64,000 nucleotides of DNA from Dictyostelium discoideum. Its lineage: Eukaryota. Below are positions 14,494 through 26,569 of this stretch, one piece after another (the first letter of the stretch is position 1; each line of letters starts with the position of its first letter). The DNA lies in NCBI GenBank assembly GCA_000004695.1, contig CM000150.2:160001-224000 (forward strand). The letters are read 5' to 3'. Under the pieces are notes generated by a model, which had not been told where the DNA came from, searched no databases, and saw nothing but the letters and a program-made list of their open reading frames with translations. Both the position numbers and the translations under genes were made by a program.

Positions 14494-14593
14494 NNNNNNN
14501 NNNNNNNNNNNNNNNNNNNNNNNNNNNNNNNNNNNNNNNNNNNNNNNNNNNNNNNNNNNNNNNNNNNNNNNNNNNNNNNNNNNNNNNNNNNNN
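14494..14593. other. Assembly gap (100 N).
   Basis: Run of N characters. Skipper gag lies on one side and DIRS-1 ORF1 on the other. Confidence 0.99.
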
Positions 14594-15476
14594 TGGCATT
14601 ACTATTGCTACTGTTTCCTGTAGTGTTATTACCACTTGAGTTAACTGATTTCTTGACATTGGACTTGGAATGATAATTCAATTTTAACAATGATTGTTTA
14701 GCTTCGTTGTTCTTTCTGATTGACTTGGCTAGCTTTCTTACACGTTCAGTTTCAGTTTCATCAAACATCTTTGGTGTATCCTTGATCTTAATTGGTAAGA
14801 GTACTTCAGAACCATAGATTTCTTTAGCGATGTTGTTACGACGGACACGACTAAGCGATGCTTGAGCATTAACGGCTAAGACGATTGCACTCTGAGTTAA
14901 ATAACTAATAAGTTCTACATCGACATTAGAGCTATCAGATGATAACATACTTGACATGAGAAGCAAAGGTTTTAAGCTATCGTTGATTCGCTTTTCGACA
15001 ATCAACAAGTCAGTATCATTGTTCTTGACGTTGGATGATACAGAAATACCTTCAGGTGTACCGAATGGAGCGACATTCACTTGGATGTGAGATGGAAAGT
15101 TGAATACTTTATTCAATGCGGATATCTTATCTTTCTTGAGTACATTCTTCGACAAGTGAAAACCTATTGTTTACCATATGTTTGTACTGACCAAGTAAAG
15201 TATCGGATAATTGATAATCGGTTGGAACATCGACATTGTTACTTGATTCATCTTCACTTTGTTCATTCTCGGTGTCAGAGTTATCATGAGAAGGTTGGCT
15301 ACGTGAATTGGTATTATATGAGAACATAGGTTCTTTCATGAATCTAGTAAAGGCTAAGGAAAGGTTGTTGATTTGATCCTCCATTGATTTCATTCTTAAA
15401 TCAAAGGATTCAGCGCTATTAAAGGCAGAGGTATTGCTACTAAAGGCTTCATATTATTATTATCAGTGGTAGACAT
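14594..15476 (-). pseudogene. DIRS-1 ORF1 (gag-like) carrying a frameshift. Its 3' end runs into the gap.
   Basis: The ATG at 15476 opens MSTT(D)NNN...MKSMEDQINNLSLAFTRFMKEP...HMVNN, then a frame break near 15160, then VAPFGTPEGISVSSNVKNNDTDLLIVEKR... This is homologous to the ORF1 copies at 18462 and 24608. Confidence 0.7.
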
Positions 15477-15918
15477 ATTTTATTGTTGATATCTAAAATT
15501 ATAATATGAGAAAAATAATAATATTAAAAATTTATAAAGAGAAATAATTATTTGTATAAAATTTGTGTGTGTGTGTATCTTAAATATATATAGGAGGAAT
15601 TCCCAAATAAAAATTGTTTTTAGTTTTTAGTGCTACTATTTATACGTTTTTATTTTCTTAAAAATTTCGCAAAACTCAAAAAAATAAGAGTTTTCGACCC
15701 TTCACAACTTTGTGCATAGTGTCGGTTCGGAATTTTTCAGTTTTTCGACCTTGCGCAATGATCGCGTCATTGTGCCGGTTCGAAATTTTTACTTTTCTTT
15801 CGAAAATTTTTTATTCTTCGAATGTTCTAGAACATTCTAAAAAATTATCTTAAATATTTGGGAAATTCAAATAAATAAATGTTATTCATAATATATATAT
15901 ATATATGATAATATAAAA
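15477..15918 (-). repeat. DIRS-1 left inverted terminal repeat (copy A).
   Basis: About 97% identical to 18011-18461 and 24156-24607, including the conserved gggtcgaaaa.../ttttcgacc heat-shock-element-like block and the outer end ttatattatcat. Confidence 0.8.
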
Positions 15919-17455
15919 GACTGATCAATACCCATCACTAATTTACCATTAGGGCAGGGGATCTCACGGATACTAGATTGCGCAAAACTTCCCGTATTCT
16001 CATCAATAAGAAGATATGTGGTGATTGTATCCACAGTGGGGGCTGGGATGGTCCCAATGCCGTGTTCCAGGCCTGATAAAACTTATCAGAATTAGAACCG
16101 CCATCTTGCACAACTATCGCTGGTGTTAATGTAGCAGCCGCAACAAACAACCCTTGATCAAATTTTAATCTATTTCCTGCCTTCGCACTAATACGCACAT
16201 CTCAACTATCGGAAGCAGGACCCGCCATCATATTTAAAATGATAGGTGTGCCGCCATCTTCCATGTACGCTATGAGTGTTGCGTTCTGAATTGTAGGACC
16301 TAGTGCACCATTACCGTAAGCTTGAATGAACTGGCCCTTAGGGGTAGGAATACCGTTATCGCGCCTGGAGCTGATAATATTTCGTTGTCCGTAACATCCT
16401 GTTTCGTGTAAGCCGTGTGAGTAGCCACTGATACTTTGGGTGCTGTAAAGACGTCTTTCACAATGTCATTAATCTCTGCAGCGGTCACAACACCGCCCTG
16501 GATAACTTCCTCTATGTCTGGTAATCCTCCGTTACCACCACCACCGCCCGCTAATGCGATTATATCGCCTAACGTTGCTTTCCTTAAGGCTAATCGTCCA
16601 TCTTCATTTAGTTGGGAAATCGCAACAATCTCCTGACCCGTTATAGTTTGAGCTGCTGGTAATGTAGAAAATTTAACAGCCATAATAACGCTCCATAATT
16701 CAACCGATTTAAATGCTAAAATATCAATATATTGCAATGGTCAAAGCATGGGGTTTTATAGGAGCCCTACTAGACTCTCTCGTTTAAACTTTATACACTA
16801 CTTATTATTATTGATTTAAAAATGAGTGCAGGACTCATTAAGGCTTGCACAGGGAATTGAACCCCAATCCACGTTATCGTTGGTGGCTCTAGGCCGCTGT
16901 GAGCTACATACATTCTGTCAGAAAGGTAACCTACGTCCCTCCAACTTTAACGCACTCTATTGTTGAGCTATACAAGCATAACATAAATGACCCAGCCTCG
17001 CAGTATTTATTACATTCGCAGCGGCGATGCACGCCTAACCACACAGTTTATGAACCCACTAGATTATCAGATCCCGACTGGAAGTTTTGTCACGAACTCT
17101 ATTGTAGGGTAATTAATCCTACGGTCAAGCCGTCTACCAATTAGTTAAGTACCTAGTAAATGTTCAACGATTAAGACATCATCCTCTGGACTCAGTCCGT
17201 ATCTGTTCTTTGCGTGTCTGGCTATTACTGGCTTATTTGTTTGCAGTGGGTCTTTGCTATCATCGCTGAGACTTGGATGATAAAAATACCAACCAAGTCT
17301 TGTTCACCGCTCCACGTATAAGGGGAAAATATTGTCTCCTCAAGACAGCCCGAAGGTAGTCGGTGGCTAACCACAGCCCAACTCACCTTTTGCTCAGGAT
17401 TTACCCTAAAAGGCTATTAACTTTATAACCTCATCTTTGAGTGCGATTAGCTTTC
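15919..17455. other. GC-rich (about 48-50% GC) segment of bacterial or phage-like composition, sitting between a DIRS-1 ITR terminus and a DIRS-1 RT fragment.
   Basis: Abrupt compositional shift. The ORFs 16300..16737(-) and 15938..16198(-) use enterobacterial-style codons (CTG, GCG, CGT) and carry a G-rich GGGGGNGG tract. A tRNA T-arm-like motif gggttcaattccc sits near 16835-16870. Confidence 0.5.
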
Positions 17456-18010
17456 CTTTTAAACCAGCAAGCTTTCTTGGGGAGCAACAATCTAGTTTTA
17501 AAAGTTTCTTATTTCCTTGATGACACTTTTCTTCTTTTCTTTGGGAACAAGAAGCTTCATTGATTTTGAATCGATTTGTAATCCGAGAAATGTAATTGAT
17601 TGAGTTGGTTCAAGAACAATCTTTTCTAGATTCAGCTTGAAACCTAGTTTGACAAGTAAGTCCATTGTCTTTTTGAGGTTGGATAAACATTCTTCTTTTG
17701 TTGAACCGACGATTAATAGATCGTCCAAGTAAGCGATTACGGACACGTTGATATCTCTCAACATTCGAAGTACATGTCTTAACAACATTGTAAAGATACG
17801 AGGAGCTGTCGATAACCCGAACGGCATTGTTTTCCAACGGTAGTGCGAACCTTTCCACACGAAGCGGAATAAGTCTCTGTATTGCGGATCTACTAAAACG
17901 TGGAGGTAGGCTTTCTTGATATCGAGTTTTACCATGTAATAACCTTGTTTGACCATTGACGGTAGATTCTTGATTCCTTCCATCTTGAATGATTGGTTGT
18001 TGATGTAAGT
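17456..18010 (-). mobile_element. DIRS-1 internal fragment (start of ORF2: RT with YLDD).
   Basis: ORF 17498..17983(-) reads MEGIKNLPSMVKQGYYMVKLD...IAYLDDLLIVG. Homology to DIRS copy C breaks at about 17455. Confidence 0.75.
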
Positions 18011-18461
18011 GTTTATTTATATTATCATATATATATATATTATGAATAACATTTATTTATTTGAATTTCCCAAATATTTAAGATAATTTTTTAGAATGTT
18101 CTAGAACATTTGAAGAATAAAAAATTTTCAAAAGAAAAGTAAAAATTTCGAACAGGCACAATGACGAGATAATTGCGCAAGGTCGAAAAACATAAAAATA
18201 CCGAACCGACACAATGCACAAATTTGTGAAGGGTCGAAAACACTTATTTTTTTGAGTTTTGCGAAATTTTTAAGAAAATAAAAACGTATAAATAGTAGCA
18301 CTAAAAACTAAAACAATTTGATTTATTTTATTTGGGAATTCCTCCTATATATATTTAAGATATACACACACACAAATTTTATACAAATAATTATTTCTCT
18401 TTATTAATTTTTAATATTATTATTTTTCTCATATTATAATTTTAGATATCAAAAATAAAAT
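18011..18461 (+). repeat. DIRS-1 left ITR (copy B).
   Basis: Matches the other ITR copies and is directly followed by the ORF1 ATG at 18462. Confidence 0.8.
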
Positions 18462-18929
18462 ATGTCTACAACTGTTAATAATAATTATACCTCTAGTAGT
18501 AGTACCTCTGCCTCTAATAGCGCTGAATCCTTTGATTTAAGAATGAAATCAATGGAGGATCAAATCAACAACCTTTCTTTAGACTTTACAAGATTCATGA
18601 AAGAACCTATGTTCTCATCTAATACCAATTCACGTAGCCAACCTTCTCATGATGATTCTGACACTGAGAATGAACAAAGTGAAGATGAATCAAGTAACAA
18701 TGTCGATGTTCCAACCGATTATAAATTATCCGATACCTTACTTGGTCAGTACAAACATATGGTAAACAATCAAGGTTTACTCGTCGAAGAAGAATGTATC
18801 CTCAAGAAAGATGAGATATCCGAATTGAATAAAGTATTCAACTTTCCATCCAACTTCCAAGTCAACGTCGCTCCATTCGGTACACCTGAAGGTATTACTG
18901 TATCATCCAACGTCAAGAACAATGATTAA
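18462..18929 (+). CDS. DIRS-1 ORF1 (gag-like), copy B. The element is truncated after it.
   Basis: 155 aa reading MSTTVNNN...VAPFGTPEGITVSSNVKNND. Unrelated AT-rich DNA follows 18930. Confidence 0.7.
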   Translation: MSTTVNNNYTSSSSTSASNSAESFDLRMKSMEDQINNLSLDFTRFMKEPMFSSNTNSRSQPSHDDSDTENEQSEDESSNNVDVPTDYKLSDTLLGQYKHMVNNQGLLVEEECILKKDEISELNKVFNFPSNFQVNVAPFGTPEGITVSSNVKNND

Positions 18930-22569: not shown

Positions 22570-22870
22570 TTTAAGTATTCTTATTAAGTGAACTTTATAA
22601 TTACCCTTAATAATTACCCTTATTAATTATAATTAATAATTCCACTTAATAGTTATACTTAATAATTATACTTAATAATTTTAATTATTAATTATATTTT
22701 ATTATTATACTTAATAATTATGCTTAATAAATATACTTTTTAATTATACTTAATAAATATACTTAATAAATATACTTTTTAATTATACTTATTAATTATA
22801 CTTAATAAATATACTTAATAATTATACTTAATAATTATACTTAATAAATATACTTATTAAGTATACTTAA
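22570..22870. repeat. AT-rich minisatellite with units of about 13-15 bp (tatacttaataa[at]tat).
   Basis: Direct tandem repetition seen in the sequence. Confidence 0.7.
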
Positions 22871-22904
22871 TAATAGTACTATTTACGTTCCTACTTTAAA
22901 GATG

Positions 22905-24155
22905 CTTTTAAGTATTTTTTTTCGCCCCTGTGGAGATTAACACCCTCATTTAGGGGATGTCTTGACCAGAACACAGGTTATCCCCTTATTTTTTCTTTTA
23001 ATTCAATGGAGGAATGTCATGCCATGTAAACCTTTTGATTTTGGTAACAGGACAAAACGCACTGCAGCGGTCGATAAAGCCAAGCGAGTTGCTAATCCAA
23101 TTCGTCGTACTCAGTTACTGAAGAAGATTCGTTAATGACTGATCGGAAAGTCAGCATCGCTAGAATGGTAGATTGTCGTTGAGATGCAGGGCGTAAAGCC
23201 CAGCTATTGGCAAAGATGTAAGCGGCTTAAGAGCCCCTAATTAGTATCCGCGGTCACGGCCGCACATCCTAGCCTATGGGCTCACACCAATGCGTAATAT
23301 GGTAGCAAAAATCATGTCAGATGAAGACATCCCAGATCATGATACCCGTACATGGTATTGTCTCCAGTATCCAATAACCTCAATCTGCCATCAAACCAAA
23401 TTATAATATTTAAAAAAAAAAATTTGAATCTCAAAAATCATTTTCTAGATCTGAAAAAACCCACTTAAATTATTATTAAATTACTATTTTTTTTAATAAT
23501 TTAGTAAATAGATATTTTAAGTCATAAATTAAGCGATAAAATCTATTTTTTTGGTTAACCAGCATAGTCTAGGTGTTTATCTATTTAATATGTTTTTTGT
23601 GGATAATAAAGCATATTTCAATCACTAATGATATTTATTAAATTTATTAAATTTGTTTATTTTTTTTTTCCGTGATGGAAAATGGTAAGACCATTAGTTC
23701 GTTCTGCATTGCCCATTACATCACCACTTCTTACATGTCAGCGTCTGGTGAAGTTACGCTGGGTGATGCAGCCGATAAAGAGACACAGTTCGCTATTAAC
23801 TCGACTGGATCGATTAATATGTAAGCGCCACGTTTTGTTCTGAAGGGTATTCGGGATGAGAGAACACCTGTTTTTGAATGCTCATGAATTATCCAGCATA
23901 GTATGTGGAATTCTATAGACCCTATTACCAGAAATACGACCACGGAAGATCTTGGTTCGCAACGCGTTTGCTGAAGTGGTTCACACACAACTATCCAACA
24001 GCGGTGATTGATGTGGTTAAGTCCGTGGCCCTGGTTCTTGTTAAACATCGCGATTTGATTGGTAACCCATCATTCATTGACACAGAGTGGTTTTTGGATG
24101 GTGAGTGTTTGCGTCATCTTAATAACGCACTGGTCATGGAAAACGAACCGGTTTA
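22905..24155. other. Second GC-rich bacterial or phage-like segment (with a short AT-rich stretch at about 23400-23680), ending exactly at the outer terminus of the DIRS-1 copy C ITR.
   Basis: About 47% GC with enterobacterial-style codons. A small ORF at 23027..23143 (+) reads MPCKPFDFGNRTKRTAAVDKAKRVANPIRRTQLLKKIR, and ORF 23905..24189 (+) reads ...ATRLLKWFTHNYPTAVIDVVKSVALVLVKHRDLIGNPSFIDTEWFLDGECLRHLNNALVMENEPVY. I cannot name the protein family. Confidence 0.5.
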
Positions 24156-24607
24156 TTTATATTATCATATATATATATATATATTATGAATAACATTTAT
24201 TTATTTGAATTTCCCAAATATTTAAGATAATTTTTTAGAATGTTCTAGAACATTCGAAGAATAAAAAAAATTTTCCAAAGAAAAGTAAAAATTTCGACCC
24301 GGCACAATGATGCGATAATTGTGCAAGGTCGAAAAACTGAAAAATTCGGAACCGACACTATGTACAAAGTTGTGAAGGGTCGAAAACTCTTATTTTTTTG
24401 AGTTTTGCGAAATTTTTAAGAAAATAAAAACGTATAAATAGTGGCACTAAAAACTAAAACAATTTGATTTATTTTATTTGGGAATTCCTCCTATATATAT
24501 TTAAGATACACACACACACAAATTTTATACAAATATTTATTTCTCTTTATTAATTTTTTATATTATTATTTTTCTCATATTATAATTTTAGATATCAACA
24601 ATAAAAT
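24156..24607 (+). repeat. DIRS-1 left ITR (copy C).
   Basis: Matches the other two ITR copies, with the ORF ATG at 24608. Confidence 0.8.
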
Positions 24608-26469
24608 ATGTCTACCACTGTTAATAATAATGATGCCTCTAGTAGTAGTGCCTCTGCCTCTAATAGCGCTGAATCCTTTGATTTAAGAATAAAATCAATG
24701 GAGGATCAAATCAACAACCTTTCTTTAGCCTTTACAAGATTCATGAAAGAACCTATTTTCTCATCTAATTCCAATTCACGTAGCCAACCTTCTCATGATA
24801 ACTCTGACACCGAGAATGAACAAAGTGAAGATGAATCAAGTAACAATGTCGATGTTCCAACCGATTATCAATTATCCGATACCTTACTTGGTCAGTACAA
24901 ACATATGGTAAACAATCAAGGTTTACTCGTCGAAGGAATCAAGAATCTACCATCAATGGTCAAACAAGGTTATTACATGGTAAAACTCGATATCAAGAAA
25001 GCCTACCTCCACGTTTTAGTAGATCCGCAATACAGAGACTTATTCCGCTTCGTGTGGAAAGGTTCGCACTACCGTTGGAAAACAATGCCGTTGGGGTTAT
25101 CGACAGCTCATGGTATCTTTACAATGTTGTTAAGACCTGTACTTGGAATGTTGAGAGATATCAACGTATCCGTCATCGCTTACTTGGACGATCTATTAAT
25201 CGTCGGTTCAACAAAAGAAGAATGTTTATCCAACCTCAAAAAGACGATGGACTTACTTATCAAACTAGGTTTCAAGTTAAATCTAGAAAAGAGTGTTCTC
25301 GAACCAACTCAATCAATTACGTTTCTCGGATTACAAATCGATTCAAAATCAATGAAGCTTCTTGTTCCCAAAGAAAAGAAGAAAAGTGTCATCAAGGAAA
25401 TAAGAAACTTTTTAAAACTAGATTGTTGCTCCCCAAGAAAGCTTGCTGGTTTAAAAGGAAAGCTAATTGCACTGAAAGATGCAGTTATCCCATTCAGACT
25501 TTACACTCGTAGAACAAACAAGTTTCACTCTCAGTGTCTGACTCTAGCCAATGGAGATTGGGATCAATCATTCCCCATTCCTCAAGAGGTCAAGTCAGAG
25601 ATTTCACATTGGTTAACAGTTCTAAACCAATGGAATGGAAAAGAAATCAGTCTGTTTCCAAGTTACGACTATGTTCTTACAACCGATGCCTCGGAATCAG
25701 GTGCAGGTGCCACTCTCAAGAAAGGAAACAAGGTAATCAAAACTTGGTCATTCCAGTGGTCAACAACTCAATCAAACATGTCGTCAAATCGTCGAGAAAT
25801 GCTCGCGCTGCTAATGGCCTATCAAGCGCTATGTCAGAAACTGAACAACTGCAAGCTGAAGATTCAAACCGACAACACTACCACTCTCTCTTACATCAAT
25901 CGCCAGGGTGGTCAGATACAGGATCTCTCAGTTCTGTTCGAACAACTTTGGAAACAATGCCTCAAGAAGAAAGTGAACTTGATTGGAGAGCATATTCCAG
26001 GATTCTTCAATGTAAAAGCCGACCACCTCAGTCGTCTTTCAGAGATGAATCACAAATCATCGTCCAGAGTAATCAAGAGTTACAACTGGCAACTGAAGAA
26101 GGAAGTGTTCAATCGCATCCAACTTCAATTCGGTCAAATACAGATGGATCTGTTCGCATCTCACTTCAACCATCAAACGAACAACTACTCAACAATCAGA
26201 ATGAATGCACTCCACCTCGATTGGAGTCAATGGAAGCAATGTCTGGCCTTTCCACCACCCATTCTTTTGCCTTCTATCCTGGAGAAGATGAACTCATCCA
26301 GTTCGAAGAAGGTTTCTATAATACTGATCTTCCCAATCTGGAGATCAGCAACTTGGTATCCGATGATTCAAGCTCAAGTTCCTCGTCATCATCGTCACAT
26401 GTTTCCTCAAGTACTGGGAACATTCCAAGAAGTATTGACCAAACAATCAGTAGAGTCGATACCAATCCA
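24608..26469 (+). CDS. DIRS-1 ORF with an in-frame internal deletion that fuses the ORF1 N-terminus (about 105 aa) to RT (YLDD), RNase H (TDAS...E...D) and downstream domains. It runs into the assembly gap.
   Basis: 620 aa are readable: MSTTVNNN...HMVNNQGLLVE|GIKNLPSMVKQGYY...IAYLDDLLIVG...VLTTDASESGAGA...IQTDNTTTLSYINRQGG...ADHLSR. Copy B carries another 45 aa of ORF1 after LLVE. Confidence 0.75.
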
Positions 26470-26569
26470 NNNNNNNNNNNNNNNNNNNNNNNNNNNNNNN
26501 NNNNNNNNNNNNNNNNNNNNNNNNNNNNNNNNNNNNNNNNNNNNNNNNNNNNNNNNNNNNNNNNNNNNN
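26470..26569. other. Assembly gap (100 N).
   Basis: N run between DIRS-1 copy C (+) and Skipper pol copy 3 (-). Confidence 0.99.

Follow-up and report, generated by a model that had tools for sequence, protein, structure and literature searches.

The window analysed here, a stretch of 64,000 nucleotides from chromosome 1 of Dictyostelium discoideum strain AX4, contains two segments of decayed jumbo-phage DNA, which derive from a single locus of a phage genome and now lie among centromeric retrotransposons. We hypothesize, with a probability of roughly 0.6, that both descend from a single old acquisition of phage DNA that was later broken up by insertions of DIRS-1 and by rearrangement.

The left half of the window is occupied by copies of Skipper and DIRS-1 and includes two 100-N assembly gaps, and ordinary genes (Nup93, LIM, FtsH-like) follow from about 33 kb onward; the window therefore represents the inner edge of the chromosome 1 centromeric repeat cluster. 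This cluster was 'manually reconstructed' from short-insert clones, and consists of about 86% repeats with two tRNA (pseudo)genes (Glöckner & Heidel, PMC2665215). The gaps (14494-14593 and 26470-26569) flank an 11.9-kb contig that holds both phage pieces, and since each gap falls between one DIRS-1 copy and one Skipper copy, the placement of the phage island rests on repeat-based joining. The features of this contig are as follows.

15464-15917, minus strand: left inverted terminal repeat (ITR) and leader of DIRS-1 copy A, continuing leftward into the gap 14494-14593
15918-17424, minus strand: segment 1, from the same phage source as segment 2
16683 down to 15918, minus strand: tail-fibre-like pseudogene, frameshifted near 16335 and again near 16030, with a TGA at 16202-16204
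16842-16977, minus strand: tRNA-like sequence, scoring 31.6 bits with the Rfam tRNA model (gathering score 29)
about 17165-17390, minus strand: conserved phage non-coding element of segment 1, upstream of the pseudogene
17425-18010, minus strand: internal (RT) fragment of an older DIRS-1 copy; its junction with the 5' end of segment 1 is illegitimate
18011-18929, plus strand: DIRS-1 copy B, inserted into the older DIRS-1 RT fragment
22905-23395, plus strand: segment 2a, jumbo-phage-derived DNA (tblastn, synteny, pairwise comparison, family HMM)
22952-22999: terminator-like hairpin with a T-run in segment 2a, seen by eye (fold z -1.45)
6 nt upstream of the next feature: GGAGG Shine-Dalgarno motif in segment 2a, seen by eye
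23019-23135, plus strand: intact 38-aa ORF MPCKPFDFGNRTKRTAAVDKAKRVANPIRRTQLLKKIR in segment 2a
about 23136-23230, plus strand: decayed homologue of a phage 45-aa gene, with a 1-nt deletion
23290-23390, plus strand: N-terminus of a 334-aa-family gene in segment 2a (ORF 23290-23403, 38 aa)
23396-23669, no strand: AT-rich filler of 274 bp (17% GC) inside the 334-aa-family gene
23670-24150, plus strand: segment 2b, the rest of the 334-aa-family gene followed by an ORF cut by the ITR
23672-23833, plus strand: second piece of the 334-aa-family gene (residues about 69-128), with a premature stop at its end
23905-24189, plus strand: ORF '...KWFTHNYPTAVIDVV...ENEPVY', 94 aa from a GTG, running into the DIRS-1 ITR
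24151-26469, plus strand: DIRS-1 copy C, with left ITR and leader at 24151-24607 and the ORF1 start at 24608
15917/15918, 17424/17425, 22904/22905, 23395/23396, 23669/23670 and 24150/24151: the six host/phage junctions

Segment 2 (22905-24150) first stands out by its composition, as a sequence-only reading of this DNA had recognized: its GC content is about 44%, against 6-22% (100-base bins) in the flanks. The content is uneven within the segment, with bins of 38-51% in 22901-23400 and of 41-47% in 23701-24100, separated by the filler at only 17%. Directly to the left of the segment, at 22592-22874, lies a tandem array of 21.8 copies of a 13-bp unit, ACTTAATAATTAT. With a related phage contig as its training set, a third-order Markov model outscored all rival models, built from host and transposon sequences, only for segments 1, 2a and 2b; these three are alike in composition and group with the phage contig, as nothing else in the window does. 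Six-frame searches of the whole window found phage loci and a phage-family HMM to be matched by segments 1 and 2 only, and neither these searches nor the composition models revealed further phage pieces in the window.

The two ORFs of segment 2 that the sequence-only reading had quoted, MPCKPFDFGNRTKRTAAVDKAKRVANPIRRTQLLKKIR and '...KWFTHNYPTAVIDVV...ENEPVY', are both present, and the clue to the source of the segment came from a third. Searches of Pfam and PHROGs with eight ORFs gave nothing significant and a single hint, phrog_10337 (E 0.007), which prompted a tblastn search with the ORF at 23290-23403 and was later borne out by phage homology. In a 2.3-Gb phage collection this ORF matched, with 57.6% identity over 33 aa (E 1e-3), the very N-terminus of ACSA002_2040, a 334-aa protein encoded by Salmonella jumbo phage vB_SalM_SA002 (SA002), and the amoeba copy, SA002 and Erwinia phage AH06 all carry the motif GKTIS(S/T)F. 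Segment 2b has, at 23672-23833, the counterpart of residues 69-128 of ACSA002_2040; ten further members of the family all match 23290-23388 and most of them also match 23672-23833, with E values for segment 2b down to 5e-5 (local tblastn). A family HMM built from the ten recovered members and searched against 3,587 six-frame fragments of the window matched at E 6.4e-9 (family positions 1-33) and 1.3e-3 (positions 69-121), and these were its sole matches among the fragments. As the filler is flanked by family residues 1-33 on one side and 69-121 on the other, the AT-rich 274 bp sit within one phage gene, where they stand in for about 24 codons; the host AT-rich model fits them best, and they resemble Dictyostelium intergenic DNA and not phage DNA.

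Upstream of this gene, the intact 38-aa ORF matches a 40-aa gene of SA002 (E 3e-4, identical positions in the pairwise comparison), and the remnants of the 45-aa gene, IVVEMQ at 23172-23189 and RKAQLLAK at 23192-23215, lie in different frames, which places the 1-nt deletion between them. A promoter and terminator scan gave a signal no higher than the shuffled expectation, so the Shine-Dalgarno motif and the hairpin are features seen by eye only. Downstream, the phage-side part of the last ORF (23905-24150, 82 aa), cut by the DIRS-1 ITR, had no homologue in a word-indexed protein search or an IMG/VR peptide scan and only chance matches in tblastn, and the final 320 bp of segment 2b have no detectable relative, by the family HMM included. 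Segment 2 had no blastn match among E. coli genomes, phages and plasmids, and IMG/VR peptide scans with ORFs of the window returned none either. The protein-level homologies identify segment 2 as decayed jumbo-phage DNA. The earlier description of it as bacterial-like was right in that this is foreign DNA of prokaryote type; the homology to SA002 and AH06 points to a phage, and not to a bacterium, as its source. Ribosomal DNA palindrome, mitochondrial DNA and a known transposon had also been considered as origins, and were dropped once the phage homology was established.

Segment 1 contains a frameshifted and truncated tail-fibre-like gene together with a conserved non-coding element, both of which point by homology to jumbo phages. 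In a HMMER search the ORF at 16300-16683 matches a protein of 453 aa (P0002) with 56% identity (E 3.5e-27), and the match to the P0002 gene extends through three minus-strand reading frames and one TGA stop, at 55-62% identity over about 250 residues. The pseudogene stops at about residue 250 of 453, where the ITR of copy A begins. P0002 is encoded on the Logan contig SRR13790903_41 (118,137 bp, 46.6% GC), which, in the 21 kb from which its contents are known, shows close-packed co-directional genes including ThyA, GyrA, a Peptidase_S80-family prohead protease and Peptidase_S74; it is apparently a jumbo-phage contig, undescribed so far, and its gene the nearest known relative of the segment 1 gene. 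The remaining relatives of P0002 occur only in jumbo phages of 212-294 kb, namely pEa_SNUABM_37 (genes 104/105), PhiEaH1 (annotated 'tail fiber protein') and PCH45. The members of this phage family share their N-terminal domain with the amoeba copy, which differs from them by two frameshifts, one stop and the lack of the C-terminal 200 residues. At the DNA level, a search with segment 1 gave a sole match of 45 nt.

The only match to the segment 1 ORF in the word-indexed protein search was the amoeba's own DDB_G0267332 (P0001, 176 aa; 15918-16913, minus strand), a spliced gene model that joins an ORF overlapping the tRNA-like region to two frames of the tail-fibre pseudogene. DDB_G0267332 is very likely not a real gene, and the consequence for the annotation is that this model rests on a phage pseudogene. 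The tRNA-like sequence at 16842-16977 has an insertion of about 64 nt in its anticodon loop and is not called by ARAGORN; a scan of the whole window with Rfam at the gathering score and with ARAGORN found nothing. The context of the tRNA-like sequence suggests that it is phage-derived, and it probably accounts for one of the 'tRNA pseudogenes' reported from centromere 1.

About 100 nt of the non-coding element share 71-83% DNA identity with SA002, AH06 and two IMG/VR contigs (L005 and L006), and the element was located in phage sequences at 24030-24160 of L002 (SA002), 11960-12090 of L004, 12930-13060 of L005 and 12935-13065 of L006. It is kept among otherwise divergent jumbo phages. Rfam matched it to no family and its covariation is weak (4/15 pairs); one possibility is a phage RNA not described so far, another a regulatory site. 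The genes beside the element differ: SA002 and AH06, unlike segment 1, have no tail-fibre-like gene there, and AH06_219 and SA002_2070, which adjoin it, are not homologues of that gene. In SA002 the element adjoins tRNA-Tyr, and the AH06 annotation has a tubulin/FtsZ-like gene downstream of the element, at a distance of about 5 kb. A further SA002 site, at 22897-22967 of L002 (about 176307-176377), scores 34 bits with the Rfam tRNA model and is probably an unannotated phage tRNA, where the record annotates a small hypothetical CDS, ACSA002_2056.

The gene order links the two segments. We compared the amoeba copy with SA002 (vB_SalM_SA002, MN445183, 288 kb; cluster ACSA002_2020-2040) and AH06 (Agricanvirus, MZ501268, 275 kb; cluster AH06_211-213), each with its downstream non-coding element. 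The three consecutive genes of segment 2 follow the order and orientation of SA002 2020/2030/2040 and of the AH06 trio (a 39-aa 'MPC..' ORF, a small ORF and a 335-aa gene), so that in all three a small basic 'MP..' ORF is succeeded by a small ORF and then by the 334-aa-family gene, in the same orientation. In SA002, AH06, L005 and L006, the start of the 334-aa-family gene is followed after 3-4 kb, again in the same orientation, by the element found in segment 1, and pEa_SNUABM_37 carries homologues of both the segment 1 gene and the segment 2 gene. Unlike its SA002 and AH06 counterparts, the amoeba copy is frameshifted, interrupted by AT-rich DNA and truncated, and it is distant from them, with matches at the DNA level limited to short blocks. 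Thus the segments show significant homology to genes known only from jumbo phages and a gene order shared with SA002, AH06, L005 and L006; the 2.7 kb that are preserved hold none of the hallmark genes (major capsid, chimallin shell, PhuZ tubulin, multisubunit RNA polymerase).

Because the homologues of both segments fall in one phage neighbourhood of 3-5 kb, the segments come from one phage genome and are not independent captures; by this synteny they are neighbouring parts of that genome. The check that the sequence-only reading had proposed, whether both come from one genome and are collinear there, thereby gives a positive answer, and a common origin of the two is borne out; the same composition in both agrees with it. 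It might still be supposed that the same or similar phages contributed DNA twice, each piece landing independently in the centromere, as the segments are 5.5 kb apart in the window and inverted relative to each other, the DNA between them consisting of DIRS fragments and of about 4 kb that are AT-rich and host-like. However, four phage genomes (about 275-290 kb, or partial contigs) have the homologues of both within 3-5 kb, chance would place two pieces of a phage genome of about 280 kb within 5 kb of each other in only about 4% of cases, and the composition is the same, which makes two acquisitions decidedly unlikely.

Self-comparison revealed three DIRS-1 left ends in the window, A (15464-15917, minus strand), B (from 18011) and C (from 24151), all of them left ends since each continues into the ORF1 start. 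Their alignment gives a common left terminus, GTTTATTTATATTATC, at 24151/24152, so that the right edge of segment 2 coincides with the outer end of the copy C ITR within 1-2 bases, as had been proposed from the sequence. The end of copy A is about 5 bases shorter than the B/C consensus, and adjoins the 3' truncation point of the segment 1 pseudogene; on its far side, segment 1 meets the internal DIRS-1 RT fragment at 17424/17425. Copy C ends in a 100-N assembly gap. Within 24608-26469 it has also lost internal sequence, so that ORF1 (..GLLVE) is joined straight to the RT domain (GIKNLPS..), and in copy B ORF1 reads on normally past the deletion point.

According to the accepted model, the tyrosine recombinase of DIRS-1 integrates the element as one complete circle, with existing DIRS-rich DNA as the preferred site (PMC7192593). 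If the element inserts as a complete copy, any target sequence will end exactly at an ITR terminus, and on this model the junctions at the ITR ends are the normal outcome of DIRS-1 integration, for which no capture mechanism would be needed. They resemble other DIRS-1 junctions in D. discoideum centromeres (PMC2665215, PMC7192593) in having complete left-ITR ends beside unrelated sequence, nested and fragmented elements and no visible target-site duplication; they differ from them in that the sequence struck is phage-derived and not another transposon. The sequence-only reading had seen in the two segments independent foreign pieces abutting left ITRs, and had offered repeated capture during DIRS-1 replication or integration as one explanation. 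Both segments do abut the outer termini of left ITRs; since they are not independent, repeated capture becomes unnecessary.

A direct role of DIRS-1 in the acquisition would require that its replication intermediates or its tyrosine recombinase recombined with incoming DNA, the junctions being made at that moment. Extrachromosomal DIRS-1 cDNA exists and is usable for integration (PMC7192593), and both phage pieces meet the outer end of a left ITR with the phage sense strand reading into the DIRS sense strand. This shared polarity in two of two cases would arise half the time by chance, though, and the segments lie outside the ITR outer ends, not within an element, are unique in the window and so not repeated beside its other DIRS copies, and are joined at their other ends to an internal DIRS fragment or to plain AT-rich DNA, not to ITR termini. 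As ordinary insertion into pre-existing phage DNA yields identical junctions, we give capture by DIRS-1 only a slim chance. Slimmer still is the broader proposition that ingested foreign DNA enters by way of the DIRS-1 centromeric cluster, where the circular cDNA of DIRS-1 or its tyrosine recombinase would recombine directly with phage DNA; if it were true, centromeric retrotransposon arrays would be a route of phage-to-eukaryote gene transfer in a bacterivorous amoeba.

The state of the genes bears on a different doubt, namely that contaminant phage DNA was joined to DIRS-1 reads by chimeric clones or by repeat-driven misassembly, of which systematic chimerism, also suggested earlier, is one form. 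The repeat region was indeed assembled by hand, the island has an N gap on either side, and both outer ends of its contig are DIRS-1 sequence, where misjoins occur. In the assembly of this gap-bounded contig, the phage pieces are joined to DIRS-1 or AT-rich host-type DNA at the six junctions listed above. Against the doubt, an artefact would need all six to have arisen independently within 12 kb. The segments also bear signs of residence, with two frameshifts and a stop in segment 1, and a 1-nt deletion and a 274-bp Dictyostelium-like block in segment 2, which are unexpected in fresh contaminant DNA. Searches of E. coli genomes, plasmids, phages, IMG/VR and protein collections turned up no source nearly identical to the segments, and the closest protein is only 56% identical. 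Strain AX4 is cultured axenically, and a lytic enterobacterial jumbo phage is therefore improbable as a contaminant. An artefact of cloning or assembly is thus unlikely.

The single old acquisition, which we prefer, would have proceeded as follows. Several kilobases of DNA from a lytic jumbo phage that resembled the group of Salmonella SA002, Erwinia AH06-Agricanvirus and pEa_SNUABM_37 would have entered the DIRS-1-rich centromeric region of chromosome 1 in one integration event. The hosts of this group are Enterobacterales, the kind of prey the amoeba eats, and ingested phage-infected bacteria may have been the route of uptake. The phage DNA would have come first and the DIRS-1 insertions afterwards: the non-functional insert would have decayed through frameshifts, a stop codon and the 274-bp AT-rich replacement, and been split into two or more pieces of opposite orientation, with DIRS-1 copies A and C inserting into the phage DNA, copy B nesting in the older element, and further deletion or filler events and at least one inversion. 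That DIRS-1 landed inside the phage insert would account for each phage piece stopping at the outer terminus of a left ITR. Several observations count against this reading. Both phage pieces sit in one 11.9-kb, gap-bounded contig of a manually reconstructed centromere, and as copies A and C run into the gaps, phage sequence beyond them is out of sight. The segments still have a GC content of about 44%, and so have undergone little AT-amelioration so far; the pieces are mutually inverted, and the last 320 bp of segment 2b lack a detectable homologue.

If the junctions are real, DNA of a lytic jumbo phage has become fixed in a phagotrophic eukaryote's nuclear genome, as a trace that can be dated and is physically mapped; it lies in heterochromatic centromeric repeats, the one compartment where useless DNA can persist. 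The phage DNA probably explains one unexplained 'tRNA pseudogene' of centromere 1 and part of its 'non-repetitive' fraction, and the pieces, as a unique marker, allow insertions of DIRS-1 and rearrangements of the centromere to be dated in different strains. A literature search found no report of phage DNA in a Dictyostelium centromere, and nothing relevant on DDB_G0267332, SRR13790903 or phage horizontal gene transfer in Dictyostelium.

A foreign-DNA fossil is a known phenomenon; the donor, a lytic jumbo phage, and the location are unusual, and no new mechanism is evident. That phagotrophic eukaryotes acquire prokaryote and phage DNA horizontally is the idea expressed as 'you are what you eat', and the present case is like others of this kind in that DNA from the world of the prey has been fixed in the genome of a bacterivore. 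It is unlike them in that what was fixed is non-coding debris of a lytic jumbo phage in heterochromatic centromeric repeats, where no functional gene is retained and selective retention is not implied.
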